This document shows positions 28,156-53,514 of a DNA stretch of 54,338 bases, one piece after another. The DNA lies in the IMG/VR virus record IMGVR_UViG_3300021389_000029, positions 1 through 54,338 of that record; one strand, given 5' to 3'. The translations under genes were made by a program, and so were the position numbers. Origin of the DNA: a virus (taxonomy: Duplodnaviria > Caudoviricetes). The notes below the pieces were generated by a model that ran no database searches, was not told where the DNA came from, and saw only the letters and a program-made list of their open reading frames with translations. Numbering within the stretch: the first letter of the stretch is position 1; the number at the start of each line of letters is the position of its first letter.

Positions 28156-30492
28156 ATGGCTCAACGGCAAATAACAAATCTCGCTACATTCTCAAATTAT
28201 GGAATGAGTAGACTCAGAACTGGATTTACTAAAATTGATGGAACCGCTTCTATCGACTCTAATGAAGTCGTGTCGGGTGGAATGATGATGGCCTTAGCGT
28301 TAGATATGAAAAATACTTGGGGTATGTTTAACGGAGCTCCAGATGTCGGAAATGAATTAATAGATTCATCTAATGTACCCATAACAAAACAATTCTTTGA
28401 AGAAATATCACTCAACAGAATAGGAGATTTTTCGGGAACATATTCTGGGTCTGCTAACTATAGCCAGTCAACACCCTCTGCGCCCTCTCAACATGTTATG
28501 TTATTTCAATCCACAAATGATATTTTGCCCAATAATGGTACAGTTTCTAGGGGATTGGATCAAAATTATAGGATACGTTTTGAGTTAGATTTGAGACCGA
28601 GACTTTATTTTAATCATGGGACCGGATTGGGTGACAGAGAATTTGCTCAAGAATTATATCAATTAAATATGAGAATGGATTCTTTAGGACTTTATCATTA
28701 TTCTGCTGGCAACCAAATAAACGAACAAGCGTTCAAACCAAATTCTTACTATCCCGACACAGTATACAGACCTGATAATTTTATTCTCCCAGCATCTGGT
28801 TTTAGTGGGAGTTCTGGTTGGGAGGATCAAATTGGTATTCCAAATCCTATGTATGGATGGTTTAAGGTTAATGTGGGTTGTTCAAATCAATTATTGGCAT
28901 CTGGTGATATTTCTAGTCCACAAACAGAAACCAATGGATTAATAACACTGGAAAATGGTTCTACAGTAGATACATCTATTTTGAGGATGCCAGGAGAGTG
29001 TGTAGATTTGACATTTGAAGATGTCACTGTTCTTTCAGACCCTTCCAACACAGGTCCATATTATGTACAAGGGACTATAACAGAAGACAATCCACAACCA
29101 AAGTATTATTTTCCTGTGTTTTTAGATCAATACGCAGCAAATCAATACGATGGAGCGATTGCTAACACTGCGTCTACCACCCCGATTTCTGCTGTCTCTA
29201 ATACGAGTCCTGTGATTGTGACCACCTCTGCGGCACATGGATATACTGACGGCCAACCAGTACATTTTAGTTCTATCTCTCCGACGATAAACCCATTAAA
29301 CGGAAACACATATTATATAAAACTTATTGTTGGCAGTGTAACTCAATTTAGAGTATACATGAACTCAAATTGTACAATTCCATTAGATGGCACTCTTTGG
29401 AGTACTGCTCAACAATACACTGGTGGCGGGACAGTATCTTCTGGTGTTGGAACATCTGTTGCAAAAACTGTTACAGAATTTCCATTGCTGACGCTGTATG
29501 TACCTACTACTTCGCATGGGTCTGCTACATGGGGTTCTGATACGGCTCCAAGTTCTGTAACGGGATTTAAAAAATATATAAACAACCGATCTCTTCGATT
29601 TAGAAATAAGAAAAAGGGTTCTGGTTGGTTTAAAAGATTTCCTAAAACAGAACCAGTTTTACAAGGGTCATATCCATTTTCATATAGACTTACTATGACA
29701 GAAAGAGGAATATTTTTATATATTCACGATGATGCTGCATCCGATCAGGCAGATGATTACGCATGGCTTGCAGTTCAAAGAACTGTAAATAATGAGACCG
29801 GTATAACAAGAACAGATGAAGGTTCAAAGTTTCCATTACATACGATGTATTCATGTTCAAGAGATTCTGTATATTCTAGGGATGCTGGTGTTTATTTTTC
29901 TCAGGCCGCGGCCAATTTGCAAAATGCAGAAAATACGGTAGATACAGTTTATGACGAATCAGGCAACACATACAACTTATCAAATTTAGACAACAGCAAA
30001 ACATTTTATATATTAAGTCCATATGATAGAGAAGATTATCTTGCAGATGAATATACTGCAAAAAATATTTGGAGATTTGTTGCAAGAGAATTTGATATTT
30101 TAAAACCCACAGATGTTCATAAATTTGCCACACGACATCAAGTTGACAGCAACGCAGTCATTAATCCACTTGAACAATTATCTATCACAGACGAAAACAG
30201 ATTTGTTATAACATTTCCGACCGGATTGACGACTCAAAGATTTATGTATCCAAAAGAAGAAATGGATTTGATTTGTTTTTCATCTGCTGAAGTAGTTGCG
30301 GAGTCAAGTAATATTCCAATGACAACTTATAAGTATGATGGTACAAGCATAGATAAACGCAGATATCAGGGCATGCGTTCCACGGCAGCTTTTGGTAACG
30401 GTATGCGAATTATGGCTTTAGTAAACGGACAGAATATTCATAATAGTGATGTAGTATTGGATATTAACGATCCAATTGGAATAGAAGTATAA
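28156..30492 (+). CDS. Virion structural protein, paralog family member 1
   Basis: Shares blocks YP.SY.LT.T..G, DDYAW..VQR.VN, RFV.RE.D..KP.D.H, INPLEQLSIT, FPT.L..QRF.Y, RRY.GM.ST..GNGMRI with three other ORFs in the window. Start ambiguous (TTG 28147, ATG 28150, ATG 28156). Confidence 0.7.
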   Translation: MAQRQITNLATFSNYGMSRLRTGFTKIDGTASIDSNEVVSGGMMMALALDMKNTWGMFNGAPDVGNELIDSSNVPITKQFFEEISLNRIGDFSGTYSGSANYSQSTPSAPSQHVMLFQSTNDILPNNGTVSRGLDQNYRIRFELDLRPRLYFNHGTGLGDREFAQELYQLNMRMDSLGLYHYSAGNQINEQAFKPNSYYPDTVYRPDNFILPASGFSGSSGWEDQIGIPNPMYGWFKVNVGCSNQLLASGDISSPQTETNGLITLENGSTVDTSILRMPGECVDLTFEDVTVLSDPSNTGPYYVQGTITEDNPQPKYYFPVFLDQYAANQYDGAIANTASTTPISAVSNTSPVIVTTSAAHGYTDGQPVHFSSISPTINPLNGNTYYIKLIVGSVTQFRVYMNSNCTIPLDGTLWSTAQQYTGGGTVSSGVGTSVAKTVTEFPLLTLYVPTTSHGSATWGSDTAPSSVTGFKKYINNRSLRFRNKKKGSGWFKRFPKTEPVLQGSYPFSYRLTMTERGIFLYIHDDAASDQADDYAWLAVQRTVNNETGITRTDEGSKFPLHTMYSCSRDSVYSRDAGVYFSQAAANLQNAENTVDTVYDESGNTYNLSNLDNSKTFYILSPYDREDYLADEYTAKNIWRFVAREFDILKPTDVHKFATRHQVDSNAVINPLEQLSITDENRFVITFPTGLTTQRFMYPKEEMDLICFSSAEVVAESSNIPMTTYKYDGTSIDKRRYQGMRSTAAFGNGMRIMALVNGQNIHNSDVVLDINDPIGIEV

Positions 30493-30520
30493 TTAAAAAG
30501 AGAAACAACAAAATATTTTT

Positions 30521-30528
30521 TATAAATA
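30521..30528 (+). promoter_or_regulatory. T4-type late promoter (TATAAATA)
   Basis: Exact consensus followed by an AGGAG RBS before the ATG at 30555. Confidence 0.88.
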
Positions 30529-30554
30529 ATAAGAAAATTAGATAGGAGACCTTA

Positions 30555-33500
30555 ATGTCTATTGCAAGCGGATTTAGTATTCAGAGAAATGACGTTATAC
30601 AAGTGCCACATAGGCAACAATACGAAAGTCACGATGCAATTTCGGGAGATAAAATCTATCTTTTGAGATCATTGCCAGATTATGAAGACAAGAATTGGGA
30701 TTGGGATATTCGAATGGGTGAAGTTAGAACTCATCTAGAACGAGGGGCAGCTGCTTTAGCGGTGAATGGGAATAATACCACCTCGACTGGCGTTGGCCCA
30801 ACCGGAGTTTACCCAACAGAAAAAGTGGCATGGAACGCAAATGCATATACAGAAGGGTCTCTTGCAGCAGGACTAGGAACTGTTATGTACGATTCTCAAT
30901 ATGGAGAATTTGGAGCTATTGTATTCCATGAATCAGCTCAACCAATGCCGGGCGAAATAGTTGAGATTTCATATACAGAACATACAAGTAAATTTACTGG
31001 TTCTGGTGGTTTATTATATCAACTTGCACATGATATGTGTATTCACCCTTTCGATTCACCAGAAATATTTCAAGCCCACTTTGGAAATTACACAGAATTC
31101 GTGGATGATAATGCCGCCGAGGCTGGCAACCAGCGCGGCGACGTGGGCAAGGAATATGTATCTAACATTCCTTCTGCTGGTCTCGCAGGATCAAATAATT
31201 TCGCTGCATTGGGCCCAGCTGGTGCTGTCTTGACAGGTACAGCTGCAGAGGATCTAAAAGTTTTTAAAAACAACCTCTCTATAAAATACAAAGATTTATT
31301 GGATGATGACATTAAAGAGGCGACACAAAGAACTGTTCAGAATTTGTGGAAGGTCGTAAGAGAACACAAAGAAACTGCAACTATTAATATGAGCGCCAAC
31401 ACAAGCGGCGCGACAACCAATGCGGATCTTTTCGCGACGGACACAGTGCCCACAATAGCTGAAACATATAGCTTGGCCAAATTACAAGCTGCTTCGACGG
31501 CGGCAGAGATTACAGCGCAAACTATTCCACTTATGACAGACTTCCCATTAATTGAGAGCGATCTTGGTAGTGGCGAATTTAGAGTTTCTATTGACGGAAA
31601 ACTGATTAATAGAGATGATTGGATAGTTACCAGCGATGTTTCATCAAGAAGATCGACTTTTAAATTAAAAAGAACTACTGGCATGCCTTGGATTAGAAAT
31701 CTTGGAGCTGTCGAAGTCTCTATTGCATATGTCTGGGGCAAATCTATCGATGTTCCTTATGGAGCATTAGTTGGTAGACAAGGACTAGGTCCAGATCAAG
31801 TCACATCGACTTTGGCGGTTAATGAGGTATCTTTCCCACATGACGATCAGGCCTACGATAGTAATATCCTAGATGCAAATACACAAAAGTATTGGATATT
31901 TAGTAGGGCGTTTAGGTCGCCCACCAAAGTGTCACCACTTGATCCAAAAAATGCATTTTTTGGATGGCATACGGCTAGCGCAGCTACTGAGGCGACTATA
32001 GTAACAGCTCAAGAAGGATCAACTGGTCCATTATCATTGTCTGCGATCGCAACCGCCGAGGCCTTGTCGGGAAGACACAAGAATACTGCTAAAATTAATG
32101 ATTCTGATGTTATGTATCTGGAAATGAAATCTTCTGATGAATATTCAAGACCATTTCAATTGATATATCCGCGGCCGCTTACTTCGGGGTTGACGTCTTC
32201 CGATAGTGATATAAAATCTAAATTAAGAGAAATTACAGATAGATTTGTAGTCGAATCAGAAAGAGGTGTCGATCTCCTGTCTGATAGTAATTTGAGTTTT
32301 GTTAATAGTAACAGCCCTGTAAGTAATAGAAAACCACAGAAATGGCGTATAAGATTTGTTTGGGATGAGACATCACTATCTCTAAAAGTCAATGTTGGTA
32401 CAGATTTGCAAATTTTAGATGATTGTACTGTATCAACAATGCAAAATCGAGATGGAATAAAATCTCCAATATTCAGAGAGCCGGGCGAACTGTGCGATGT
32501 ATATCAAACTCCTGCTATTGGCCGTGGTACTAGTGTGTCAATTTCACGAGCGAAGTCTCAATTTTTTAGAAAATCACAAATCGAAAAAGAAATGGCTCGC
32601 AGTTATCCCATGTCTTTTAAAATGACTTGTACTGATCACGGCATGGGATTGTTCTTGTTTGATCAAGCCTCTGTTGACCAAGACGACGATTATGCATGGT
32701 TTGTAATTCAAAGACATGTAAATCAATCAACTGGACAACCGGAATTTGCAGATAAATCACCAGTACATTGTGTATATTCGCCATCAAAAAGACCGACAGA
32801 TGTGAGTACACTGACTCCATATTATTCATCTTCTGACATAAACGATATGAGCAAACCACCAACCATTTATAGTTCTCTTGCTGGTGTATATAAAACTGAA
32901 GCACCGACAGTATATATCAGTAAAGATGCTGCGTTTTTTAATGGTAGGGTAAATGCAATTGATTTTAATGGATATGGATATGCATCTGGTACTGCTCAAG
33001 GATCGGTTGCTGCAACCACTTTAGAAATTTCTGATGTAAAGGTAGATTTATTTAGAGGATTGTCGGGAAATATGTCTGCAATCAATACTGATTTGTGGTA
33101 TGAAAAAACATATTCTTTCTTTGTTAAAATTGATGACGCCATAAATCCACCAAAAATTCAAAAAGGACATTTTTTGGCATGTAGAAACAAGGCTGGAGAT
33201 GTTGACGACACAAATCCTATTATATGGGGGGGTAGAATAAAAGAATGGTTCCCATCCACTGGAAAAATTACAATTTCATCGGTAAATAATATTACTGGCG
33301 ATGAAATTCGAGGTGACAGTCTCACCGATGTTACTACTAACGCAGATGGTACTCTATTGAAATTAATTGACGCTGATACTGCGACAGATGGTTCTACTAC
33401 TATAAACCTTGAAATTGGTATGTCAAATTCTGGTGATGTTACAGATGGTACTTTCCAACCATTTGCTTCAACTGCCGAGGCGCTCACAAGAACGGCTGAA

Positions 33501-35303
33501 TACAAAAAAACAACTTTAAAGTTAAAAACTATGCCATATGTGAATATCTCTGGACCATCCAGCGAGATTACAGATTTGGCTATTACAGGATTTAATTCTT
33601 TGCCTAGAAGAAGAGACACATCTATAGCATTGAATGCGTCACCAGCGCCAGGTGCTGTTGAACAAGTTGAAAAACAAGTTACATCGGGTGTTGTTACTGC
33701 TGAGGCATTGATTCGTGGTATCACAACTACTGGTGATAATCTCATAGATGCGACACCGGCCGCCGCAAATTGGGCAATCGGAAATGACACATCTTCACAA
33801 CTCTCCCAAAATATAATTTGGCCAACCCAAATTATTGAAAGAATGTCAACATTTAAAAATGCTTCTCAAGATGGTACTGGTGTACCTAGTTCTGTAGAAA
33901 ATATCAATTTGACTAATTATGCAGAAGGTGATTCTGCTTTAATGGACATTTTATATACAGCACAACCAGAAAATGTCGATAAAGTATTTGAATCTATGGT
34001 TGTAACTTTAGATGAAGTTGAAGTTATAAGAGATTCAAAAGCATATATCCTAACTTACGATGAATGGGTAAGAAGAGGAGATCCGACTACTGTTCCTAGA
34101 TTTATGGAATCTTTAGAGGCTGCTGGTGTGACCAATCTTGGACCAAATTTTAAACTTCCTAATATAGATGCGAGTACTGTGCCAAATTTCAATGCGTTAC
34201 AGCCAGGAATGGATCCAAACGCTACAAGTAACAATATTATTTCGTATACTACACAGAATTTTACTACTGGAAAAAGATTCTTTTCAGAATGGAATACTAC
34301 AACAACAGGTATATATTCACATGTGGATAACTCTGGAAACATCATCGCGCCGGATACTACTGGCTCAGGGTTTGCGAGTGGTAGCTCAACTACACCCACG
34401 GACGATGCTGACACCGATTGGGTACAGGGTGTGGATTATCCACATTGGGTTATTGATTCTAGTAAATTGGTTGCTTCTGCCAACGATTCAAAATTGAGTT
34501 CTAAATTGCCGGGCGATGTAATATGGACAAATACAACTGGTAGAAACGAATATATGTATGATTTTTGGAATAAATCTCTTTATTTTAAGAATTCTCCAAG
34601 ATCAGGATCGTCATTCTCAATTTCTATGATCAACTACCAAACATCAAATCCAAGTCAAGGAACATATATTATTTCTACTCCCGAAGATAGAAATTTCCCC
34701 GAAACAAATATGAATGATGTTAAGTCTATTAATAGATTTATTGTAAGAGAAAAAGATGTGTTTAAACCGTGGGATTACCATGTTTCTGCAACAATGCATG
34801 AAGTAGATTCACATGCTATTATAAATCCGCAAGAACAACTTTCGATTACTCAAGGAAGAAATTTCGTATTTTCTTTCCCAACACAATTGACAAGTCAGAG
34901 ATTTTACTATCCAGAAAGTGAACTGGATCTGATTTGTGTTTCTTCTGCTGATTTTTCAACTCAAGCTGGGTATGTAGAAATTGATAAATACAATGACTCT
35001 GATGGCAAGATAACACCAGCTGGCAGTGGTTATACAGATCCAGTTCAAGTAGCTATCAACGCCGTATCGGACACCAACGAAATCAATGAAGATTTACATA
35101 AGATAAACACTACAAACGCTGGTGCTTATGGTGGGCATTTGGCGCCGGATGGATCTTACCAGATTTGGAGAAAAAATAAAAGAAGGTATGAGGGCATGCC
35201 TTCAACATTGCCGAACGGAAATGGTATGAGAATATTCTTACAAGTTACCGGATCTAGTATTTCATATAGTGATGTAGAAAATGGCTCCGCACCTGTAGCC
35301 TAA
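30555..35303 (+). CDS. Virion structural protein, paralog family member 2
   Basis: SIQRN; LAHDMC.HP; RKPQKWRIRF; VNVGT.LQI; FREPGEL; YPMSF..TCTDHG; DQASVDQDDDYAWFVIQRHVN; KPWDYHVSA; GNGMRI. Own late promoter and RBS. Confidence 0.72.
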   Translation: MSIASGFSIQRNDVIQVPHRQQYESHDAISGDKIYLLRSLPDYEDKNWDWDIRMGEVRTHLERGAAALAVNGNNTTSTGVGPTGVYPTEKVAWNANAYTEGSLAAGLGTVMYDSQYGEFGAIVFHESAQPMPGEIVEISYTEHTSKFTGSGGLLYQLAHDMCIHPFDSPEIFQAHFGNYTEFVDDNAAEAGNQRGDVGKEYVSNIPSAGLAGSNNFAALGPAGAVLTGTAAEDLKVFKNNLSIKYKDLLDDDIKEATQRTVQNLWKVVREHKETATINMSANTSGATTNADLFATDTVPTIAETYSLAKLQAASTAAEITAQTIPLMTDFPLIESDLGSGEFRVSIDGKLINRDDWIVTSDVSSRRSTFKLKRTTGMPWIRNLGAVEVSIAYVWGKSIDVPYGALVGRQGLGPDQVTSTLAVNEVSFPHDDQAYDSNILDANTQKYWIFSRAFRSPTKVSPLDPKNAFFGWHTASAATEATIVTAQEGSTGPLSLSAIATAEALSGRHKNTAKINDSDVMYLEMKSSDEYSRPFQLIYPRPLTSGLTSSDSDIKSKLREITDRFVVESERGVDLLSDSNLSFVNSNSPVSNRKPQKWRIRFVWDETSLSLKVNVGTDLQILDDCTVSTMQNRDGIKSPIFREPGELCDVYQTPAIGRGTSVSISRAKSQFFRKSQIEKEMARSYPMSFKMTCTDHGMGLFLFDQASVDQDDDYAWFVIQRHVNQSTGQPEFADKSPVHCVYSPSKRPTDVSTLTPYYSSSDINDMSKPPTIYSSLAGVYKTEAPTVYISKDAAFFNGRVNAIDFNGYGYASGTAQGSVAATTLEISDVKVDLFRGLSGNMSAINTDLWYEKTYSFFVKIDDAINPPKIQKGHFLACRNKAGDVDDTNPIIWGGRIKEWFPSTGKITISSVNNITGDEIRGDSLTDVTTNADGTLLKLIDADTATDGSTTINLEIGMSNSGDVTDGTFQPFASTAEALTRTAEYKKTTLKLKTMPYVNISGPSSEITDLAITGFNSLPRRRDTSIALNASPAPGAVEQVEKQVTSGVVTAEALIRGITTTGDNLIDATPAAANWAIGNDTSSQLSQNIIWPTQIIERMSTFKNASQDGTGVPSSVENINLTNYAEGDSALMDILYTAQPENVDKVFESMVVTLDEVEVIRDSKAYILTYDEWVRRGDPTTVPRFMESLEAAGVTNLGPNFKLPNIDASTVPNFNALQPGMDPNATSNNIISYTTQNFTTGKRFFSEWNTTTTGIYSHVDNSGNIIAPDTTGSGFASGSSTTPTDDADTDWVQGVDYPHWVIDSSKLVASANDSKLSSKLPGDVIWTNTTGRNEYMYDFWNKSLYFKNSPRSGSSFSISMINYQTSNPSQGTYIISTPEDRNFPETNMNDVKSINRFIVREKDVFKPWDYHVSATMHEVDSHAIINPQEQLSITQGRNFVFSFPTQLTSQRFYYPESELDLICVSSADFSTQAGYVEIDKYNDSDGKITPAGSGYTDPVQVAINAVSDTNEINEDLHKINTTNAGAYGGHLAPDGSYQIWRKNKRRYEGMPSTLPNGNGMRIFLQVTGSSISYSDVENGSAPVA

Positions 35304-35329: not shown

Positions 35330-35337
35330 TATAAATA
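35330..35337 (+). promoter_or_regulatory. T4-type late promoter (TATAAATA)
   Basis: Exact consensus followed by a TAAGGAG RBS before the ATG at 35366. Confidence 0.88.
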
Positions 35338-40307: not shown

Positions 40308-40333
40308 AGGGGGAACTTGTTTCCCCCTTTTTT
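40308..40333 (+). terminator. Rho-independent terminator
   Basis: AGGGGGAA-cttgt-TTCCCCCT 8-bp stem running into a 6-T tract, downstream of the paralog 1-3 cluster. Confidence 0.85.
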
Positions 40334-40344
40334 GCAGAGTATAC

Positions 40345-43300
40345 ATGACAACATTATCTAACATATTTTTATTTAATGACGTAATAATCGTCAGAGTAGG
40401 CGTTGAAAGTCCTTCGAATTTTTCTCGCTCGCCTACAACTGACCCAGCCAATCGTGATTATACAATTACGATAGATGGAGAAACTTGGAAATATATACAT
40501 CCTTTTGGTTGGAATATTCCGGTTAATACTGTTATAGATGAAGGAAAATTACGATACACTTGGTCGTCTATAGGGTTTAGAGAGAATGGATATCTGACCG
40601 ATGAATGGAAAATTTGCGTATTTTCAAATCTAATAATGGTAAATGGTTTATCTGGACCAGTTACGATTTCATTTGATAGTGGCGAAATTTATAAAAATGG
40701 ATCTTCTGTCGGTAATACTACTACTGTCGAAAACGGCGACACTATCAAGTTAGAAGTTTCAAATTACATTGCTAATATTTCTCAACCATCCATATTCTTA
40801 ATAAATGTAGATGGTGTCGATATACCTTGGACAGTTTCATTGACAGATCCATTGTTGAATATCATAGAAAACGAAGTCAGAAAATCTTCATCAAATGATG
40901 ACTTGAAAATATCTCATCATAATATTCCAGTTAAGGCCGCAGATTTAAAACTTGTATATGATAATGCTCCGGTTGTGGCTAATGCATTTGAAAAACTGAT
41001 AAGCGATATTGCAGAAAAATCAACCAGTATAGAGTTTTCTTTGCAGGAGTTGCAAGAGGTAATATCAGATCAGGTCATAGGTATAATTTCTGAAAAAACT
41101 AGAACGACTGTCTCCGAATTAAATATTCTTTCTCCTTCTGAAATAATTAGTCTTAGAGAAATAAAAATAGACAATATCTATGACACAGAGACTTTAATAT
41201 TGGAGTTGGATATTCCGCTCGAGAGATCTGACACTTCCGATATTTCTGTTATTTCTGCTAATGAAATTGCATCAGTATCAGAAATTGATGTTACTGAAAT
41301 AACAGAAATATCAACCACAGAAGATATAGAATCTACATCATCCGAAGATTTATTACTTACGAAAGAAAAAGAGTTTGATAGTCCTGAAGAGGTTGTAAAT
41401 ACATCTGCGTTAGAAAGTGCTGTTGACGAAGATTTAGCAGAAACTACAGAGACACCAACAGAAACAATAGTAGATTCTGTAGAAACTGCAGCGGCCGAAA
41501 CCACATCGGTAGTCGATTTGCCAGATGGGTTGGATGTAGAAAACGATGTTGATGAAGATTCTCCGGACGGACTCAGTGTAGAAAGTGCTGTTGACGAAGA
41601 TTTAGCAGAAACTACAACAACAGAAAGCGCTGTTGATGAAGATTCTCCGGACGGACTCAGTGTAGAAAGTGCTGTTGACGAAGATTTAGCAGAAACTACA
41701 ACAACAGAAAGCGCTGTTGACGAAGATTTAGCAGAAACTACAACAACAGAAACCGCGGCAGTAGATGATTTGGTGGAAACCTCTACCACTGAAACTGCAG
41801 CTCTGGATGATTTAGCAGAAACCACAGACACACCGACTGAAACAATAGATGATTTGGCGGAAACTTCTACCACTGAAACTGCAGCTCTGGATGATTTAGC
41901 AGAAACCACAGACACACCGACTGAAACAATAGATGATTTATCTACCACAACAGATTTGGAAAGTGCGACAGTAGATGATGATTTGGAGTTGTCGGCTGTT
42001 GATAATGTAGTAGATGTAGAACTAACAACAGATTCGGATATAGAAAACGAAACCGATAATGATATTGTAGATGAAAATGAGTTTGAAAACGCATCTATAG
42101 AAGATGTTATCACAGAAAACGAAATAGAAAGTGTTATCGAAAGCGAAACATCTGAAACTGGCGATTTGGCTACTATTGCTGAGACAGATTTATCTAGTGA
42201 AGAAACGAGAGAATCTATCTCAGAGAGTGAAACTCTTGAAGAAAAAATACTTGAAAAAATACAAGAGTTGACCACCGAAGTATTTTCTGATGTTTCTGTA
42301 ATTACAGAAGAGATAATCGAAGATTTATTAGAAAGTGTATTAGATCAATTATCAGAAACTACAGATGAAAATGATATCTCTACTTTATCAATAACAGAGC
42401 TGATCACCCAATTACAAACAGTCTTTGATAATTCGCCCGAATTCTTAACCACAACCGACACAGTACAGGAAGTTGTCAAAGAATCAACATCAACATTGGA
42501 TCTTGCCGTAGTCAGCGAAGATTTTGTAAATACATTTATAGAAACTCTTTCTGAAAATATTCGTGAAGAAATAGAAATCGCAGAAAGAGAAGAAGATAAT
42601 CAATTAGAAATTGTAACATCATTAGATGCTGAAGTTTTAGAGGAATCTGAAACGGTTTTAGAAGATACGAAAATAGATGATACGATAACTCCCACTGATA
42701 ACACCGAAATTACTTTAGACGATGTGTCGGGAAGTGAGGGCGATGAGGAAAATTCCGAAGATCAAGTTACAGAAGTTAGTGATAATTTTGAAACTGGTCA
42801 AGATCAAATCACAGATTCCCCCGCCAATGGGGAAAGTGTTCAAGAAGAAGTTATAACAAACGAATCAAATATAGAAATTTCATTAGATGAGCCTATCAAA
42901 ATAGAATCTCCCACAGATGATACACCAGATAGCCCACAAAAATTTGAAACATCTATAGATGACACGCCAGATAGTCCACAACAATTCGAATCATCTATAG
43001 ACGAGACTCCAGACACGCCACAAGAATTTGAAACTGCAACTGATGATACGCCTGATAGTCCACAACAATTTGAAACATCAACAGACGAAACACCAGATGC
43101 ACCTCAGCAATTCGAATCAGCTATAGATGACACACCAGATGCACCTCAAGAATTTGAAACTGCAACTGATGATACGCCTGATAGTCCACAACAATTTGAA
43201 ATTGCGACTGATGATACGCCCGATAGTCCACAAGAATTTGAAATTGCGACTGATGATACGCCCGATAGTCCACAACAATTCGAAACGGCGACCGATGACA

Positions 43301-43812
43301 CACCAGACACACCACAAGAATTTGAAATTGCGACTGATGATACGCCTGATAGTCCACAACAATTTGAAACGGCGACTGATGACACACCAGATGCACCTCA
43401 GCAATTCGAATCAGCTATAGATGACACACCAGACACGCCGCAAGAATTTGAAACTGCAACTGATGATACGCCTGATAGTCCACAACAATTTGAAACATCA
43501 ACAGACGAAACACCAGATAGTCCAGAACAATCTGAAGCTTCAGTGGATGAAGTGCCAGACGAATCGACAATTTTAGTTTCAGATGACAATCAAACTTTGG
43601 ACAATTCTTCGCCCACAGTTACTACCGGAGAAAGATTTCCAGAATTTTCTCCAGAAACTATTGTCGGTGCGGATAATTTTTCCCAACAAAGGGGGGTCGT
43701 TCATATGCGTACGGCCGAATCGAAACTTTATTACTTGAATCCACATATAACTATTGCAGGCAGAACCGGACCATTTATCGACAGAAATGGTGTTAATAGG
43801 GATTACGGATAA
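40345..43812 (+). CDS. Highly acidic (D/E/T/S-rich) repeat protein, function unknown, probably virion-associated
   Basis: 1155-aa ORF: about 170-aa globular N-terminus, then very acidic sequence containing two 42-bp tandem arrays. Confidence 0.7.
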   Translation: MTTLSNIFLFNDVIIVRVGVESPSNFSRSPTTDPANRDYTITIDGETWKYIHPFGWNIPVNTVIDEGKLRYTWSSIGFRENGYLTDEWKICVFSNLIMVNGLSGPVTISFDSGEIYKNGSSVGNTTTVENGDTIKLEVSNYIANISQPSIFLINVDGVDIPWTVSLTDPLLNIIENEVRKSSSNDDLKISHHNIPVKAADLKLVYDNAPVVANAFEKLISDIAEKSTSIEFSLQELQEVISDQVIGIISEKTRTTVSELNILSPSEIISLREIKIDNIYDTETLILELDIPLERSDTSDISVISANEIASVSEIDVTEITEISTTEDIESTSSEDLLLTKEKEFDSPEEVVNTSALESAVDEDLAETTETPTETIVDSVETAAAETTSVVDLPDGLDVENDVDEDSPDGLSVESAVDEDLAETTTTESAVDEDSPDGLSVESAVDEDLAETTTTESAVDEDLAETTTTETAAVDDLVETSTTETAALDDLAETTDTPTETIDDLAETSTTETAALDDLAETTDTPTETIDDLSTTTDLESATVDDDLELSAVDNVVDVELTTDSDIENETDNDIVDENEFENASIEDVITENEIESVIESETSETGDLATIAETDLSSEETRESISESETLEEKILEKIQELTTEVFSDVSVITEEIIEDLLESVLDQLSETTDENDISTLSITELITQLQTVFDNSPEFLTTTDTVQEVVKESTSTLDLAVVSEDFVNTFIETLSENIREEIEIAEREEDNQLEIVTSLDAEVLEESETVLEDTKIDDTITPTDNTEITLDDVSGSEGDEENSEDQVTEVSDNFETGQDQITDSPANGESVQEEVITNESNIEISLDEPIKIESPTDDTPDSPQKFETSIDDTPDSPQQFESSIDETPDTPQEFETATDDTPDSPQQFETSTDETPDAPQQFESAIDDTPDAPQEFETATDDTPDSPQQFEIATDDTPDSPQEFEIATDDTPDSPQQFETATDDTPDTPQEFEIATDDTPDSPQQFETATDDTPDAPQQFESAIDDTPDTPQEFETATDDTPDSPQQFETSTDETPDSPEQSEASVDEVPDESTILVSDDNQTLDNSSPTVTTGERFPEFSPETIVGADNFSQQRGVVHMRTAESKLYYLNPHITIAGRTGPFIDRNGVNRDYG
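41413..42000 (+). repeat. Coding tandem repeat array 1, 42-bp (14-aa) period with 84-bp higher-order units
   Basis: Units ESAVDEDLAETTTT / ESAVDEDSPDGLSV / ETAALDDLAETTDT / PTETIDDLAETSTT. GAA starts at 41413, 41581, 41623, 41665, 41707, 41749, 41791, 41875 and 41959, all multiples of 42 apart. Confidence 0.9.
42916..43545 (+). repeat. Coding tandem repeat array 2, 15 x 42 bp (D[DE]TPD[STA]PQ[QE]FE[TSI][AS][TI])
   Basis: Fifteen contiguous 14-aa units counted in the translation, with near-identical DNA. Confidence 0.95.
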
Positions 43813-43813
43813 C

Positions 43814-46800: not shown

Positions 46801-46861
46801 TAATAATGTAGACGATGTAAGAGAATTGAGGGGGTATCCAGTTTATGCCAGCTGTAACTAG
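43814..46861 (+). CDS. Large hypothetical protein, probably structural
   Basis: Long ORF in the late operon. Likely start is the ATG at 43814 (MAVSFQGR), 1 nt after the upstream stop. GRLPECLSFDDGRLTG resembles a putative Ig (He_PIG-like) fragment. Confidence 0.6.
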   Translation: MAVSFQGRVGPIVQTVTRTIDNIIFDSNDSIEVSYVNYFFSSTEKSSSEVIVEYTDGLPLHTGPKSNSEFVAEYHHEKYVDEQKSSVIVESFNYMTGTFSSYEDRSASKKSFDFNRNIVLSNQSLLYTITGNDYKVGLQTVGDWEIRPFLQTASTKHLINNPFLDDPESKAPPWDGQVLLESGTSFSHNPIFFQGIAYNFPEPTEFISKTSKLINENSNFSRHLESFNLLNQNFARSMHISNPTTHDVIEMKSGLYVMQPEMFNKSNTIYRSLGYGPPADKAVSISLTVSNPRDTFSKNNQFSKLLDNYSSKDDEFVEIVKNTTLNDVTWVDKIKVLNFEFSKTAYFERTNPLEVPVKVFYTPVLDKPFIHKVFFVNFDIGKPKFKPFLQSPDKTFLIEQNYMHSTVSIGKGPKNKFKHLMIEELYRPGFRSYEQVYEFIMEKFEVVSSTQFDYNKFGHTFYEVIQTKRPSLSGGSNAFGHDLLPIEVGPTSIKNKIFNLEEHVENSLQAAGRSGTHRDGEYREIQNIDLYEFQYLDYDVKSKGPYSEDWRLDKEKSTFNFIYTIDEDPSNGRLPECLSFDDGRLTGTVHETDKFLRKYSWEDWMKIQGETDSDGNFISLSDSLDFSYEDFELITPRKWEVNLTGRSITKGTIDLVYNGVELKRGDIITQTIAGQSSEFEIVEKVSEFDKETDRATGGLITETIHRYEFENLRGEIEITTLTDLFVETFVDGKSELQKEVNNLQEELQFSVNFKASVLQKQIEELSATIIENDLVNPTGYAYIEKTPSGKQVNYQYVLNEEGDSFVVDDLEMLTGGVVTKFIKLIFTIRNNWSFDRDLRLFTDSSIIDSEFPNRTDWVEDQRSKGRGLFDPQLNNNEIDKMLIGYMKEYKDSIISIERYLEERDIIIESRIYIDPDQKIKYKNFLDRFIYIDRKSNMWQKNDYLIMSITSEDFFLEFPINDGIDRGQSLDTISETENGKQVFKINCDFNVDEQTFYNNVDDVRELRGYPVYASCN

Positions 46862-47783
46862 ATTAGGAGATCGATGTACTGGTCATGGTTGTCACCCGCC
46901 TCGACCGAATAGATCAGCAAGTACAGATGTATTTGTAAATAGTAAGGGAGCACATAGAAAAGGCGATGGATGGCATGTTCATGTATGTCCACCAAAAATA
47001 TATGCGCCGCACGGTTCAATTCTCGCGGCCGGTTCATCGTCAGTTTTTGCAAATGGAAAACCAATCGGAAGAATAAACGATCCAGTTGCGTGTGGTTCTT
47101 ATGTTCGAGATGGAAGTGGAAATGTTTTTGCTGGAGATAGTTCTCCACCTGTGCCACCTTTATCGGATGTTCCGGTAGATATCTCGCAAGAACATGAAGA
47201 TTATATGAAAGAAGGAATAATTACCGCGCCAAAGAATAGTGAAACTTTTGAATATGGTGATGGTGGAATATCTAATGGCGATGGTGGATACTTATCAAAT
47301 AATACAAGTCCTGTAAATAATGTTACTGGACCACAAGATGCTCCAATAGAAGATAATAGTGTTCCATTTGAAAGAGTTGATGATCCAACATTGAATTTCT
47401 TACCACACACAGATTCTAGAATTGAACCAGCACTGAAAAATATTCTTATTGAAGTTGCTAAAGAATGGGGCCGGACACTTGATATAACCAGCGCCTATCG
47501 CAGTCCAGAGTATAACAAAAAGGTTGGTGGGGCTAAAGGAAGTATGCATCAACAGGGTAAGGCTACCGACATTATAATGTCTAGTTATAGCAAAACCGAT
47601 AGGGCAAGATTTATTGATATATGCGTTCAAAAAGGAATAAAGGGTATTGGATTGTATAATACTTTCACTCACATTGATATTGGAGGCAAACGGGCATGGG
47701 GATCAAATGGCAGTAGAACAAGTATTCCAAGATTCCCTTGGGCGATATCTACTTTGAAAAAACATGGTTATGCTACTGGTTGA
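46845..47783 (+). CDS. PAAR spike-tip protein (gp5.4-like) fused to a C-terminal peptidase M15A domain
   Basis: MPAVTRLGDRCTGHGCHPPR....S.DVFVN.KGAHRKGD.W..H.C.....H...LA.GSSSVF.NGK..GRI.DP..CGS.V..GS.NVF.G is a gp5.4-type PAAR. ITSAYRSPEYNKKVGGA.GSMHQQGKATDI...GIGLY.TFTHID is Peptidase_M15_3 with intact SxHxxGxAxD and H ligands. Confidence 0.9.
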   Translation: MPAVTRLGDRCTGHGCHPPRPNRSASTDVFVNSKGAHRKGDGWHVHVCPPKIYAPHGSILAAGSSSVFANGKPIGRINDPVACGSYVRDGSGNVFAGDSSPPVPPLSDVPVDISQEHEDYMKEGIITAPKNSETFEYGDGGISNGDGGYLSNNTSPVNNVTGPQDAPIEDNSVPFERVDDPTLNFLPHTDSRIEPALKNILIEVAKEWGRTLDITSAYRSPEYNKKVGGAKGSMHQQGKATDIIMSSYSKTDRARFIDICVQKGIKGIGLYNTFTHIDIGGKRAWGSNGSRTSIPRFPWAISTLKKHGYATG

Positions 47784-47790
47784 TATTTGT

Positions 47791-47798: not shown

Positions 47799-47817
47799 AT
47801 ACATAGGAGATTTTTAA

Positions 47818-48735
47818 ATGGCAGGCGCATTTCCACTCAAGGCTATTGTACAAACTACCGGAGATGTTGTACTTGGAGAGTTTTTAGAATCTGATTTCGT
47901 TGGCATTTTAGACGGCGGAACTGGTGCAGGCGGTAATGGTGGACTCCCTGATACTGCCACCGATTCGGAAAAATTATTAGCAATAAAAGGTCAAGTAAGA
48001 TCAAATTTTGATTTGATAAAATTTGATACATATAATACATTGGCAGAACTACAATCTGAGGTTGCTGATAGTGGTCGTTTAGCTTTGCTTAATTCTAATT
48101 TATATTATTCAACTGGTTCTAGTTGGATAGCTCTTGCAGAAGCATTGACGGTCGATACTAATATTACGGGAAATATAGAATTTGCTGGTAGTATAATTTC
48201 GACATATGATCCAACTACAAACACTACAACTGCAAGTTTAGATCTTACACCATTGCAATCCGAACTTGATACGACACAATCAGCAGCAGGACTAAATGCG
48301 GATGGGACTTATACTGCCGATGGCACCACTAATTATTTGACAACCTCTACATCTTTGAAAGATTCTGATGGACTTCTGGATTCTGCTATATTCTCAGAAA
48401 GAACCAGAGCTATTGGCGTAGAAACAACAATTATTACAGATCAAAACACCATAGAAAATAACTTGCAAAATTTTGAATATTCCGGTCATACAAGCGCCCA
48501 AGTGTCTGCAGCGGGTAAAGTTAGTATTGCTTATGATATAAATACTGGCAAATTCGTACCTGATGATAATTTTGGAACTGGTGGGTTTATAAAATTTACA
48601 AAAACTAATGGTACAAGGGATGATATTCCATTGACAACTACATTTACAGGTAACGAAATGACCAGTGGTGAAGTAGATTTTTTCATGGCAAATGGCACAC
48701 AGGATAATATCGATCTCATTATTAACGGTGTGTAA
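47818..48735 (+). CDS. Short fibre-like / adaptor virion protein
   Basis: N-terminus resembles that of the ORF at 53603. QSELD.TQ...G....GT.....NYL.....L.....LLD module is shared with the ORF at 23965. Duplicated C-terminal F...NGT.D.I.L motif. Confidence 0.6.
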   Translation: MAGAFPLKAIVQTTGDVVLGEFLESDFVGILDGGTGAGGNGGLPDTATDSEKLLAIKGQVRSNFDLIKFDTYNTLAELQSEVADSGRLALLNSNLYYSTGSSWIALAEALTVDTNITGNIEFAGSIISTYDPTTNTTTASLDLTPLQSELDTTQSAAGLNADGTYTADGTTNYLTTSTSLKDSDGLLDSAIFSERTRAIGVETTIITDQNTIENNLQNFEYSGHTSAQVSAAGKVSIAYDINTGKFVPDDNFGTGGFIKFTKTNGTRDDIPLTTTFTGNEMTSGEVDFFMANGTQDNIDLIINGV

Positions 48736-48743
48736 TTTTTTTT

Positions 48744-48751
48744 TATAAATA
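48744..48751 (+). promoter_or_regulatory. T4-type late promoter (TATAAATA)
   Basis: Exact consensus; AGGAG RBS before the ATG at 48796. Confidence 0.88.
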
Positions 48752-48795
48752 ATAAAAACAAACATGCACAGAATTAAAATTATAGGAGCACATAA

Positions 48796-51700
48796 ATGTC
48801 TATTTCAATAAACAGAAATGAAATTGTCCATATGGATGATTATTACAGAGATAGGAAAAGAGAGACCTTCAAACCACTAATCCAACAGATGTCCGAAGAT
48901 ATGTTGGATAATGGATTTAAAGATGTAGGTCCACAAATTACTAAGATTAGTATCAATGATGATAATTTAACACAATTTATCGATGAATTTATTTGTTTTT
49001 ATTACGATTCGAGTGTTGGTCAAGTTGGAAAAGGTGCCAGCGGTATAAATGTTTTTGGCAAGGTCGCGGATTATGATACCGGCACATCTGTGTACACCAA
49101 CCGAAATGAAGTTGGAAATTTAAGTGCTACGACATACTTTCTTGATGGAGAAAAAGGTAGTAGAATTAAAAAAATTGATGATATATACGACAATCCAAAC
49201 TGGAACGAAAATATTGCTAAAAAAATTCCAGCGATTGGATATCCCAATTATACTATTAGGGAAGGGACCCATTCGACGAACTCTAAAGACAATGCTATTA
49301 CAGGAACATCTAATTATCCGGCTGAATTCTTTAAAGCTACTGACGGAACTGCTATTACACACGTTTCTTCGTTGATTCCAAACTATACAAAGGAGGCAGA
49401 TAATCTAAACTGGGGCGATGAGGACGCACTGGAACTTGACACAAGTGTTTTTGGACAAGTATTAGGTCCAAATTCAGAACTTTTTGCATATTTAAATCCA
49501 CATCCAAATATGCGCGGAAGTACACAAGCAATAAGAGATTTTATTGCACCAAACTTTCCATCTAGTCCTTCAAATGGAGATACCCACACAATACATACGA
49601 ATGATGGTCCGGTCATCTATACATATGATGGTAGTATTTGGAATGGTGCAGACGGATCTACACATACCGGAACATCGACTTTAGATTCAAGTGTTCTCAG
49701 CGATGGAGGTAGTGTTAAAGGAATTCCATTTGGTTCTGGATGGAAAGATATAAATGATTTAGTTCCTTCAAGTGGATTTACCTGGCCCACTCAAGCCGGT
49801 GCTTATAAAGAACGTGGCGATCGGACAGATAATTCGCGGCCACTGGATTTAAAGGACGGACATTTTTATAAAAAAACGCCAGGGACCCCCGATATAGCGA
49901 CCGGTTCTGAAGTAATCCTAGTAGGCCTAGCAAGTGCAACAGAATATGCTGAAAAAGGTATTACAGATAGCACTGGATGGGACTTCATCACCACCGGAAC
50001 CCCCGACGCAACTGCGACCCCACCCACCACTTTGCCGCCAACGGCGTCCAGCAGCAAAGCAGGCCAGTCAACTTCTATCCCCGTATACCGAACTTTGCCT
50101 GCTTATCTTAATCAAGCAGGATATGTTGGATTGTCAGAGATTTCGAAAGCGGTATATTTGAACGAATTTAATAAAGTAAAAACTCTTCTTACACACCAAT
50201 CTCGAGGTGTTGTTATGCGGCCAGATTCTGCATCTGGAGTCAATACAAAAGCAACTATTAGAAATTATAGAAAAACTGTAGAAGAAAAAGGCCCAGACAC
50301 ACATGATTTTTGGATTTCAAATTATAAAGACGAAAACTTTTTTCCAGCAGGAACAGTAGAACCTAAAAAATTCGAAGGCGAATTGATGATTGGTTTTGAT
50401 TCGACATATAACAATAATGTGTTTCAAACTGGCGATGTATATACTTTCTCTTTTATCCATACTGCATTTGGCGCTGGAGCACAAACATTTACAATTCCTG
50501 TAGAAGTTGTACAAAGTACTGTAGCCGGATTCAGCAATTCAGTTTTTGAAGCTCTTTCAAAGAATCAATTATTTGATCCTGCATCCGGAGCATATTCTGT
50601 TGTAGATGGTGGCACTCTGTCTCCCAAGAGAAATGGTGTGTTAATTATAGAATCTAACAACATTGGTAGCAATTTGACGTCATCTGTTTCAAGAGTTGCA
50701 AGACCTATGGAGAGTTTTACTAATAATATACAATCATATATTGTAACTGATAACAACACACTATTCAATTCTACAATGACTAATGGCGATGGTGGTACGG
50801 CTTACACCTTAAACACATTTGAAAATGGATATGTACATGAAATTCAATTGCGCGGGTTTAGTGGCGCAAACAACGATGATGAATTTGAGTTCACAATAAA
50901 TAATCTGTTAGATGAACTTCCTAATGGTGGACTGGCAGATGTAAATAATCCAGCACTCAGAAGTGAAACTATTTACTTTAAGACAGGTGTTGCATTAAAC
51001 TCAGGTCAATTAACAGAGGCCATAGCTGCTAAGATTAGACAAAACGCATATATGAATAAGTATATGGAAGTTATATCAAATTCAAATGCTATTACTCTCA
51101 GATATAATAGACTTTCTTCTGGATATATGAAAAAGGGTGATGTTGGAAAAAGTCATGGATTACTTGCTGCAAATAGTGTCGCCCAAGGCGGCACAGGATC
51201 CGTATTGTTTACTGGCAAAACAGTAGGACAGACAAATTCCGAAGAATTTTCTATAAATGGTATCGCAGAAGAGGATGTTCCTGCCGCAGCAAAATTCAAT
51301 ATTGTGGGTAATGCTGTTTCCGGTTCTACTAATATAACTGCAATGCGAGTTGCAGCGGACGGAACATCTGCATCTACAGATACCACATATCTCGCTGCAA
51401 CGCTTCTAGATGAGAATGATTTTACTCCTGCTAAAACTGTAGACACAACCGGAGATCCATTCAACTATCGTGGAGATAATGGCGCAGTCGAAGTGATTCA
51501 AGTGGGGTTAGGAACATCTATTAAAAGAGTTAGATTAGAATTTCCTTTGGCGAGAGATTTAGGTACTTTTGCGATGCCGGTTCATGGGCAATATACAGCT
51601 TATGTTGCTCCAGCAACCAGTAGAAAAACTTCGTATTTTTCATCATATGAACAAATGGTGCTTGCTAAAAAGACGGGCAGACCAGAAGGTCCACAAGTTT

Positions 51701-53514
51701 CTTTCGATTCTATTGTAATTGCACAACACCCAAATACTTCACATGGCGGAGTTCAAAATGGTATAGTAGGTTATGAAGAGTTTGAAACTTATTCTCACGA
51801 TATTGATATTGAAACTTTCGAATATATCACAGATTATTCTATGGGTCCAGTAGTATTAGAAACCGATAGACTTCACAAATTATCGGGTTATCCAACTGGC
51901 AGAGAGGGTGAAATAGAAGGTGATCAACCTTGGAGAATAAGATTGAATATCACCAGAGGACATGAAATCCAAGAAGCTTCTCCTTATATTGCAGATGCAG
52001 TTTTGCAAGTTAATCCTGAGCAAGATTCTTCTAATTCTTTTGAATATTTACAAGTTCATGTAGCTACAGAATTTCAACTTAAAGGTGATGGAACTGTCGC
52101 AAAACCCGAGGGGAAAGATGGTCTCTCCGCTGTCACCACTATGAGAGAACCGGGCCATTTGGGTGGACTCAGACCCCAATATAAAGGGTATTTAGAAACT
52201 GCTGTTCATAAGGTAAATCCTTTTGTTCAAAGATCGAAACTTGACAGCGGAGTTAGAACTGGTTTTAATTTTAGTTCGGGAGTTGTCGGTATCCATCATT
52301 TCAATGATAGTCATGAACTGATGTTGGATCACTCATCAGTATTTACTCAAGAAGTCATTGCGGTGCCAGCATCGGGCAGCGGCGCCACGGCCGTGACCGC
52401 CGTAGCAGGCGTACCGAAGTACTTTTCTGTTGGCGGCGAGGGTGAAGGACAGATTCCATTAAAAGTGGTTGGATCAAGAATTATGACAGATTATGATTCT
52501 GGTATTTTAGTAAATGATGAGTATAGATATGAAGAACATTATTTGAGGGGTACATCTACAGAATTGGTACATGATACACCATATAATAATGGAAATTTAA
52601 GACTGCAAAAAGGATTGTTTAGAAGAACTGGGAAATCAAGATCAGATATTGCTCCAGCATATCCTATGAGTTATTATATGACAATTGTTGATCATGGAAT
52701 TGCATTTTATCTTAGAGATCAAGCTTCAACACAGGCAGATGATAATGCATTTTTTGTTGTACAAAGACATGTTCATTCTTCGGCAGAAGTTGGTAATGGA
52801 ACCACAAGTGCGCCTCAATTTCGTGCTGGTTATCCTGATATGGGAATTGATGGAAGTGATCATCAACCAATTCATTGTGTATATCAATCTTCAGAACCGA
52901 CATTGTTGTATTCTGATTTAGAACCACTCTTTACAGAAAAAGATTTGTCAAGAAGATCTTCTATTGCAAATATGGGACTATACGATCTTGAAGGAAATCA
53001 AACATTTGACTTTATGACATCAAGACTAGAATCAGCTGAGATGTCATCGGTAGATTTGGAAACTCAAAGTAGATTTAGAAGATTTGTTGTTCGAGAAAAA
53101 GATGTTCTAAAACCTTGGGATAGACATGTATTTGCTGGAGTTAATGAAAGAGATTCTACTTCTATTATAAATCCACTTGAACAACTATCTCTCAATGACC
53201 GTGGAAAACTTGTAATTCAATTTCCAAATAGATTGGGATCGCAAAGATTTATGTATACCGGCAGAGAAATTGATTTGATCGGTTTCTGTGCTGCTGGCGC
53301 GGTCGGACAAGATACTTTGATTAGTAGTGATAGGATGAGTACAGCCGGGCAAGGTGGTACGGGATCTGATGGCGATTATAGAAGATTGTATAGAGGGATG
53401 ATGTCAACTGGTGAGTTTGGTTCGGGGATGAGAATTCTTCTTCTAGTAGCAGAAAATGCTGCAGGCGATTCTATTATGCCTACCAATGCCGACATTAGAT
53501 TACTGGACAATTAA
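48796..53514 (+). CDS. Virion structural protein, paralog family member 4
   Basis: SINRNE; QPWRIRL; MREPG.L; YPMSYYMTIVDHG; DQAS..ADDNAFFVVQRHV; RFVVREKDVLKPWDRH; IINPLEQLS; FPNRLGSQRFMY; Y.GM.STG.FGSGMRILLL. About 1000-aa insert near the N-terminus. Confidence 0.72.
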   Translation: MSISINRNEIVHMDDYYRDRKRETFKPLIQQMSEDMLDNGFKDVGPQITKISINDDNLTQFIDEFICFYYDSSVGQVGKGASGINVFGKVADYDTGTSVYTNRNEVGNLSATTYFLDGEKGSRIKKIDDIYDNPNWNENIAKKIPAIGYPNYTIREGTHSTNSKDNAITGTSNYPAEFFKATDGTAITHVSSLIPNYTKEADNLNWGDEDALELDTSVFGQVLGPNSELFAYLNPHPNMRGSTQAIRDFIAPNFPSSPSNGDTHTIHTNDGPVIYTYDGSIWNGADGSTHTGTSTLDSSVLSDGGSVKGIPFGSGWKDINDLVPSSGFTWPTQAGAYKERGDRTDNSRPLDLKDGHFYKKTPGTPDIATGSEVILVGLASATEYAEKGITDSTGWDFITTGTPDATATPPTTLPPTASSSKAGQSTSIPVYRTLPAYLNQAGYVGLSEISKAVYLNEFNKVKTLLTHQSRGVVMRPDSASGVNTKATIRNYRKTVEEKGPDTHDFWISNYKDENFFPAGTVEPKKFEGELMIGFDSTYNNNVFQTGDVYTFSFIHTAFGAGAQTFTIPVEVVQSTVAGFSNSVFEALSKNQLFDPASGAYSVVDGGTLSPKRNGVLIIESNNIGSNLTSSVSRVARPMESFTNNIQSYIVTDNNTLFNSTMTNGDGGTAYTLNTFENGYVHEIQLRGFSGANNDDEFEFTINNLLDELPNGGLADVNNPALRSETIYFKTGVALNSGQLTEAIAAKIRQNAYMNKYMEVISNSNAITLRYNRLSSGYMKKGDVGKSHGLLAANSVAQGGTGSVLFTGKTVGQTNSEEFSINGIAEEDVPAAAKFNIVGNAVSGSTNITAMRVAADGTSASTDTTYLAATLLDENDFTPAKTVDTTGDPFNYRGDNGAVEVIQVGLGTSIKRVRLEFPLARDLGTFAMPVHGQYTAYVAPATSRKTSYFSSYEQMVLAKKTGRPEGPQVSFDSIVIAQHPNTSHGGVQNGIVGYEEFETYSHDIDIETFEYITDYSMGPVVLETDRLHKLSGYPTGREGEIEGDQPWRIRLNITRGHEIQEASPYIADAVLQVNPEQDSSNSFEYLQVHVATEFQLKGDGTVAKPEGKDGLSAVTTMREPGHLGGLRPQYKGYLETAVHKVNPFVQRSKLDSGVRTGFNFSSGVVGIHHFNDSHELMLDHSSVFTQEVIAVPASGSGATAVTAVAGVPKYFSVGGEGEGQIPLKVVGSRIMTDYDSGILVNDEYRYEEHYLRGTSTELVHDTPYNNGNLRLQKGLFRRTGKSRSDIAPAYPMSYYMTIVDHGIAFYLRDQASTQADDNAFFVVQRHVHSSAEVGNGTTSAPQFRAGYPDMGIDGSDHQPIHCVYQSSEPTLLYSDLEPLFTEKDLSRRSSIANMGLYDLEGNQTFDFMTSRLESAEMSSVDLETQSRFRRFVVREKDVLKPWDRHVFAGVNERDSTSIINPLEQLSLNDRGKLVIQFPNRLGSQRFMYTGREIDLIGFCAAGAVGQDTLISSDRMSTAGQGGTGSDGDYRRLYRGMMSTGEFGSGMRILLLVAENAAGDSIMPTNADIRLLDN

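Follow-up and report, generated by a model that had tools for sequence, protein, structure and literature searches.

Four paralogous genes with large inserts in an uncultured phage share a core predicted to fold like the arm proteins of JBD30

The closest solved counterpart of the proteins considered here is found in the baseplate of the Pseudomonas siphophage JBD30 (PDB 8rk3), where gp47 and gp48 are described as 'tail fibre forming proteins' (Valentova et al., 2024; PMC11445458). According to that report, the two proteins have similar folds and form heterodimers, three of which, each rotated by 180 degrees, stack into each of three bent lateral arms of the baseplate, and these arms embrace the type IV pilus receptor. 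A second point of reference is phage PaBG, for which the published virion analysis lists gp261 (34,778.16 Da; band 10, 'Unknown') among the virion proteins of its Table 1, and describes a two-protein sheath composed of gp76 and gp213 (58 kDa) (PMC7412058). In this study we analysed the window, by which we mean the whole of the IMG/VR viral record IMGVR_UViG_3300021389_000029 (54,338 bases; CheckV completeness estimate 27%), and characterized four of its genes, which lie between positions 28,156 and 53,514. These genes are old paralogs that appear to encode virion proteins with a common beta-rich core of ~320 residues, in which several sheets come after an N-terminal strand and helix, and this core is predicted to resemble that of gp47 and gp48.

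Four paralogs built on one split core

The four genes lie on the + strand, which carries all large open reading frames (ORFs) of the window. Paralog 1 (P0001; 28156..30492) is the shortest, with 778 amino acids (aa) from its ATG, although its longest open frame begins at a TTG at 28147. It is followed by paralog 2 (P0002; 30555..35303; 1582 aa), paralog 3 (P0003; 35366..40255; 1629 aa) and, further downstream, paralog 4 (P0004; 48796..53514; 1572 aa). A first-pass annotation of this sequence had read the same ordered blocks in all four frames, and our comparisons bear this out. When 20 window ORFs were compared all against all by BLASTP, these four and no others were linked as a family (E = 1e-14 to 1e-60), with paralogs 2 and 3 showing 46% identity over 256 aa. 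Furthermore, a hidden Markov model (HMM) of the core, as the first-pass annotation had proposed, was built from 46 minimal (insert-free) family members and picked out all four paralogs (E = 1e-65, 7e-67, 9e-57 and 4e-50 for paralogs 1 to 4, respectively) and no other ORF in the window.

A four-way alignment of the paralogs contains 66 invariant columns, mainly in the C-terminal blocks. Two common stretches can be recognized, namely a block of ~100 aa running from YPxSY to QRHV, and a C-terminal block of about 150-290 aa that contains, in order, RFVVRE, INPxEQLS, FPxxLxxQRF and GMR. These stretches are adjacent in paralogs 1 and 4 and ~635-640 aa apart in paralogs 2 and 3. All of the core blocks occur in the same order in the four paralogs and in the minimal members, the N-terminal strand and helix coming first and the C-terminal GMR last; that strand and helix, which fall under HMM significance in three of the four paralogs, were placed from the alignment. 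Stand-alone relatives of 310-330 aa have all of the blocks of the first-pass annotation and no inserts, and in four minimal members inspected (P0114, P0116, P0136 and P0198) the blocks are contiguous. PaBG gp261 and the tandem pair Y3_151/Y3_152 likewise consist of this core by itself, at 310-400 aa. Because the stand-alone relatives keep all of the blocks in order, and because the core HMM picks only the four paralogs, the split scaffold is real and far beyond chance.

Mapping with the core HMM placed the insert sites on either side of the helix that follows the N-terminal strand, within the WRIRF-VNVG hairpin region, ahead of YPxSY, in the gap that separates PxHxxY from RFxxRE, and ahead of the last strand. 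Paralog 1 has an almost unbroken core (aa 375-761), and its N-terminal strand and helix are found at about aa 16-52. Paralogs 2 and 3 have the same insert sites, with ~635-640 aa between core positions 211 and 212 and other inserts near the N- and C-terminus. The core pieces lie at aa 556-747, 1382-1482 and 1540-1569 in paralog 2, where an insert of ~635 aa separates the first two, and at aa 586-746, 1387-1466 and 1578-1608 in paralog 3. In paralogs 1 and 4 the 211/212 junction is nearly closed and the large inserts come earlier in the core, at sites that differ between the two. For example, paralog 4 has an insert of ~1000 aa after the N-terminal strand and helix, and its core pieces are at aa 1040-1148 and 1269-1554. 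The earlier description of a conserved core with large variable inserts was correct, the inserts being lineage specific. The accompanying statement that each paralog uses different sites holds for paralogs 1 and 4, which differ from the others and from each other, but not for paralogs 2 and 3.

Comparison with orthologs was informative about the history of the inserts. Paralog 1 and its ortholog in a complete relative are 75% identical in the C-terminal core and 52% identical in the N-terminal half, and a 105-aa module of paralog 1 is missing from that ortholog. Similarly, paralog 4 is 42% identical to its ortholog overall, with 256 gap columns, and the core is well kept. On the strength of these alignments, the inserts appear to turn over while the core stays, and the core is more conserved than the inserts. 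The 105-aa module (29131..29442 on the + strand; aa 326-429 of paralog 1) was recognized as a small beta-barrel from an AlphaFold2 (AF2) model and a structure search, aa 340-429 being the sole insert that was modelled well. This barrel matches the FCCH domain of ubiquitin E1 (9mc4_A, human UBA1; Z 10.5, root mean square deviation (rmsd) 1.8, 75 residues aligned, 32% identity) as well as 9jlf_E (Z 9.7), and resembles decoration domains of other phage virion proteins, among them a connector protein, an endosialidase and a decorated tail tube.

The sequence family, its 'tail sheath' label and its predicted fold

The four paralogs match phrog_12249 (described as 'tail sheath') and nothing else in PHROGs, at about positions 170-369 of the 370 in the profile (E = 2e-48, 7e-39, 3e-32 and 2.5e-34 for paralogs 1 to 4, respectively). 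Judged by these profile matches, the paralog core is an existing sequence family. The family is large: a profile of 18 orthologs of paralog 1 (A2), searched against 1.84 billion representative proteins, gave 390 matches at E<=1e-3, 328 at <=1e-10 and 206 at <=1e-30, with lengths of 85-2481 aa, many of them 310-400 aa. In tblastn searches, the family was found at 136 places in 68 phage records, and its cultured holders include Lu11, Y3 (in which the genes for Y3_151 and Y3_152 are adjacent), Dickeya JA11, JA13, JA29 and JA33, AD1, and Atu_ph07, with two places. The presence of four genes is conserved, since five of five related records carry the family in four long open frames each, and in a complete related record of 203,815 bases the family frames are 684, 1438, 1500 and 1327 aa long. 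A megablast search with 7 kb of the paralog region against phage records gave no match, and sequence searches of the PDB with paralog 1, with A2 and with a profile of minimal members (A3) gave no relevant match.

One member of this family can be traced to a virion. The PaBG member is a 330-aa gene in RefSeq; when read from Met5 it encodes 326 aa with a mass of 34,777.7 Da, and the genes that flank it match gp257 and gp263 by mass, to within 1 Da. Because its own mass and those of its neighbours agree with Table 1 of the PaBG study (PMC7412058), we identify this protein as gp261, and a family member is thus a detected virion protein of PaBG. Among the papers listed on JBD30 and its gp47 and gp48, and on hair-like appendages and cryo-EM in jumbo phages, none, judged by title and abstract, attributes hairs to this family or describes it in T4-like phages.

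The name that the family carries is misleading. RefSeq calls its members in PaBG, Lu11, Yoloswag and JA11 (~330-390 aa) 'tail sheath' (NC_022096, NC_017972, NC_047815, NC_048077 and others), where the original GenBank records have 'hypothetical protein', and the label appears to have been propagated from the PHROG description. It is unsupported because the complete relative has its canonical sheath gene elsewhere, and because the PaBG member is gp261, a protein of 35 kDa that is distinct from gp76 and gp213. Phage_sheath_1 (PF04984) has no match in the window. In the complete relative, it matches a 1061-aa gene (phrog_23, E = 5e-111) directly 5' of the tube gene, within a standard head-tail run of genes for the adaptor, head closure, sheath stabiliser, terminase small and large subunits, sheath, tube, portal, protease, scaffold and major head protein. 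Sheath and tube lie at 4.9-8.7 kb of that genome and the paralogs at 171-197 kb, ~160 kb apart. Furthermore, hhalign of the family profile with the gp18-type sheath of the relative gave a probability of 0.4%, and no sheath chain was among the matches listed in three fold searches with the minimal-member core model, although a family outside those lists may still match. The four paralogs are not tail sheath, and the label needs correction on phrog_12249 and on the RefSeq proteins to which it is attached, such as those of PaBG, Lu11, Yoloswag and the JA phages. If it were retained, it would mislead the annotation of marine viromes, in which the family would be read as four extra sheath genes.

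A more plausible structural relationship emerged from modelling. The AF2 model of the minimal member P0114, based on 46 sequences, has a predicted local distance difference test score (pLDDT) of 91.8 and a predicted template modelling score (pTM) of 0.92. Of 350,542 PDB chains searched with this model in Foldseek, two reached E<=1e-3, and these were chains G and K of 8rk3, each with a probability of 1.00. VIA-align against 48,161 representative chains ranked 8rk3_S first (Z 15.9; rmsd 3.4; 248 of 305 residues aligned), well ahead of the next entry (Z 5.4), and when Foldseek's 995 best chains were re-aligned, 8rk3_G again had Z 15.9 (252 aligned) and no other entry had Z>=5. The lengths of the 8rk3 chains, 305 and 317, fit gp48 (307 aa) and gp47 (318 aa). 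The family core is therefore predicted, from this model, to have the gp47/gp48 fold, and the window proteins would share it by virtue of their sequence homology to P0114. Modelling followed by a Foldseek search had been suggested in the first-pass annotation; it led to gp47/gp48 with the minimal member, whereas paralog 1 itself gave too poor a model. The core thus matches a characterized fibre subunit by fold, and not by sequence.

Further proteins with this fold were found among predicted structures. A BFVD search with the P0114 model returned family members first, two of them from Atu_ph07, and next, at probability 1.00, ~300-aa 'virion structural proteins' of several siphophages. A7KUT2, A7KUT3 and A7KUT4 (293, 270 and 267 aa) were also matched at probability 1.00 (E = 5e-6 to 3e-4); from their equal lengths and their accession prefix, we take these to be ORF158, ORF159 and ORF160 of Bacillus phage 0305phi8-36. 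A look-up of P0114 in the ESM Atlas gave solely unnamed viral clusters and weak barrel look-alikes.

Late promoters and genomic setting

Each of the four paralogs is preceded by TATAAATA, the T4-type late promoter motif, on the + strand. The copies at 28116..28123, 30521..30528, 35330..35337 and 48744..48751 start 40, 34, 36 and 52 nucleotides (nt) before the ATGs of paralogs 1, 2, 3 and 4, respectively, and AGGA or AGGAG occurs 7-10 nt ahead of each ATG, just as the first reading of the sequence had reported. The number of these motifs alone is not unusual, as the window contains 12 copies against 7.6 expected, and 12 was reached in 8 of 100 shuffles. It is the placement that stands out, because seven of the nine + strand copies are in short gaps directly 5' of gene starts, namely those at 133, 15026, 28156, 30555, 35366, 47818 and 48796. 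A terminator-like hairpin followed by a T run is located on the + strand at 40309..40335, 54 nt past the stop codon of paralog 3.

PHROG matches identified a baseplate module in the window, all of it on the + strand, comprising the tail-tube cap (133-1275), a hub subunit with tail lysozyme (3883-6192) and wedge subunits (1278-2558, 6641-8704, 8707-14979 and 15026-16708). We take these genes to be the equivalents of T4 gp48, gp53, gp5, gp6, gp7 and gp8. The paralog genes come after the tube-cap, hub-lysozyme and wedge genes, and adjoin two further genes. One of these (46845-47783) has a PAAR spike-tip domain and an M15 peptidase domain in one ORF and is probably a tail-tip cell-wall hydrolase; the other is a fibre-like ORF at the 3' end of the window, again identified by a PHROG match. 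Methylophilales phage Melnitz, Pelagibacter phage HTVC008M and cyanomyophages have counterparts of the wedge protein at 6641 with 35-37% identity, and the close relatives of paralog 1 come from JGI, ENA, Logan and Tara. Because of these identities and sources, the phage is taken to be an uncultured T4-like myovirus, probably of marine origin. Pfam searches for T4_gp9_10_N and GP11 in the window and in three relatives (the complete one included) gave no match, but the control genomes were likewise silent, which makes this weak evidence of absence. Marine T4-like phages are not known to have recognisable gp9-gp12 homologues.

Other ORFs of the window deserve brief mention. Directly 3' of the last wedge gene is a DUF4815/phrog_358 protein of 2336 aa (16741-23751, + strand; 1434 bits), a large conserved virion protein to which no role is assigned. 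Between paralogs 3 and 4 lies a 1155-aa ORF (40345-43812) that has no family match and contains two arrays (41535-41940 and 42913-43536) of acidic 42-nt (14-aa) tandem repeats, the second with ~15 copies. Finally, a 396-aa ORF (23965-25155) and a 305-aa ORF (47818-48735), the latter with its own TATAAATA upstream, have a 64-aa stretch in common (38% identity, E = 1e-5), which is unrelated to the paralogs and was the only further link in the BLASTP comparison of the 20 ORFs. The possibility that these two ORFs are hidden fifth and sixth members of the family was ruled out, as hhalign with the family profile shows no relation.

Proposed role and comparison with known systems

We consider that there is a slightly better than even chance that the cores of the four paralogs join these proteins into a heteromeric baseplate arm or fibre, whose inserts would be on the outside. 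This reading is based on the fold analogy, the position of the genes, the late promoters, the virion status of the homologue, and the recurrence of neighbouring paralog sets with this fold. In such a scheme, each gene would be expressed late from its own T4-type late promoter, and the cores of the four proteins would come together in an arm or a short fibre that is attached to the rim of the baseplate, which is of the T4 type. The core loops would carry the inserted domains, of 60 to ~1000 aa, facing outward, where they may contact the host surface or surrounding polymers. Co-assembly, the location of the proteins in the virion, their stoichiometry and the binding role of the inserts are what we infer in this scheme. 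The polymerising appendage of the first-pass annotation survives in this form, given that the closest solved fold is that of a pair which stacks into the JBD30 arm, and that the genes lie in a baseplate/fibre module with late promoters. Its suggestion of an undescribed system has to be abandoned, as the core is phrog_12249, the PaBG member has been detected in the virion, and the fold has been solved in JBD30.

Several points weigh against the baseplate-arm reading. The confident model is that of a distant minimal member and not of a window protein, and the AF2 model of paralog 1 itself (18 sequences) is poor, with a pLDDT of 53 and a core region below 50. There is no sequence link to JBD30, as hhalign of the family profile gave 0.1% with gp48 and 0.5% with gp47, and these two proteins belong to a different PHROG, phrog_687. 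In addition, the JBD30 baseplate is the threefold baseplate of a siphophage, and nothing links such arms to the sixfold baseplate of the T4 type. Proteins of the same fold may also differ in function, and the arm is here a prediction from sequence.

An alternative that we regard as rather unlikely is that the family builds or anchors hair-like appendages on the tail (or head) of 'hairy' myoviruses, and that the marine phage has a four-component, insert-laden version of them. The holders Lu11, Y3 and the Dickeya JA/AD phages are described in papers as hairy or whiskered, Atu_ph07, with two family places, shows 'hairy' whiskers (PMC6102473), and one paper on a hairy phage calls the hair proteins unknown. 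However, this overlap may be phylogenetic only, because most of the holders form one jumbo-phage lineage, and none of the 68 records matched by tblastn belongs to the other hairy lineage (the Rak2-like CBB and phAPEC6; PMC5259590). It is also true that PaBG gp261 is abundant enough to give a band in sodium dodecyl sulphate-polyacrylamide gel electrophoresis, according to the virion analysis (PMC7412058), and that a stacking brick fold could in principle polymerise further. Yet the JBD30 fold makes short arms of six subunits and not long hairs, and the window genes are in a baseplate/fibre module rather than next to the sheath gene. In its fullest version, this alternative would make the family the hair subunits themselves, with a brick core that stacks open-endedly or docks on the tail. 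The four-component version in an abundant clade of uncultured marine T4-like phages, with its giant inserts, would then be a multivalent, rapidly exchangeable adhesion organ that replaces the T4 gp9-gp12 fibre network, a proposal that we find doubtful to much the same degree. The overlap with 'hairy' phages does offer a testable candidate for appendages whose proteins have been stated to be unknown.

Two other explanations carry less weight still. The core could be catalytic, in which case the paralogs would be virion-borne depolymerases or cell-wall hydrolases and not structural bricks, but this seems to us very unlikely. In their report, the JBD30 authors put gp47 in the nitrilase hydrolase superfamily, and suggest that it may cleave cell-wall links, whereas they place gp48 in no enzyme family (PMC11445458). 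VIA-align lists polysaccharide lyases (9irq_B, Z 5.4; 3e7j_A, Z 4.7), but these low values are in a range that the tool calls common. At the thresholds used, Pfam yielded no family for the four paralogs, for 14 further members or for gp47 and gp48, and the columns that do not vary in the family consist mainly of G, P, W, Y and R, among which no catalytic set could be picked out. Most improbable of all is that the four proteins are extra tail-sheath paralogs that polymerise round the tube as a multi-component or outer sheath. This would agree with the phrog_12249 and RefSeq labels, and the PaBG-group phages do have a two-protein sheath (PMC7412058). However, the lack of Phage_sheath_1 in the window, the separate phrog_23 sheath of the complete relative, the hhalign result with that sheath and the identity of the PaBG member as gp261 all argue against it, and the sole strong fold match is to JBD30 gp47/gp48.

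These findings have wider implications. The four conserved late genes are concrete candidates for the apparatus with which a widespread uncultured clade forms its outer baseplate and recognizes its hosts. According to the models, the brick fold, known until now from a single siphophage, JBD30, would extend to jumbo myoviruses and to T4-like marine phages. A small number of fixed loops in it would also accommodate inserts several times larger than the fold itself, which suggests that it is a natural display scaffold.

Among known systems, the likeness to JBD30 gp47/gp48 is closest in structure. The fold match takes in nearly the whole chain (~250/305 residues), which is ~310-320 aa long, and the JBD30 proteins are likewise neighbouring paralogs in a tail-tip/baseplate gene block and are virion proteins. 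However, identity in the structural alignment is 8-10%, with no detectable sequence similarity. In the siphophage JBD30, with its threefold baseplate, there are two plain subunits, whereas the window encodes four, in a T4-like myovirus, each with loop inserts of 60 to ~1000 aa. A further comparison can be made with ORF158, ORF159 and ORF160 of 0305phi8-36, a tandem paralog set of virion proteins (by mass spectrometry) encoded 3' of baseplate genes and 5' of a tail-fibre gene. They differ in having no sequence similarity to the window proteins and no large inserts, and the fold link rests on their presumed identity with the A7KUT entries. The T4 gp18-type sheath also has conserved N- and C-terminal core parts with extra domains inserted between them, and is a late virion protein, but it has no sequence or profile similarity to the paralogs, and this phage lineage has its own canonical sheath beside the tube gene.

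The phrog_12249 members of PaBG, Y3, Lu11, the Dickeya JA/AD phages and Atu_ph07, by comparison, are true sequence homologues with the same ordered blocks, usually present as two adjacent copies. They are 310-400 aa long, have no large inserts and come from jumbo phages unrelated to T4, whereas the window proteins are 2.4 to 5 times longer than members of the PaBG gp261 type. In summary, the fold (in one siphophage) and the sequence family were already known, and what is new here is a set of four insert-laden paralogs in a T4-like myovirus.

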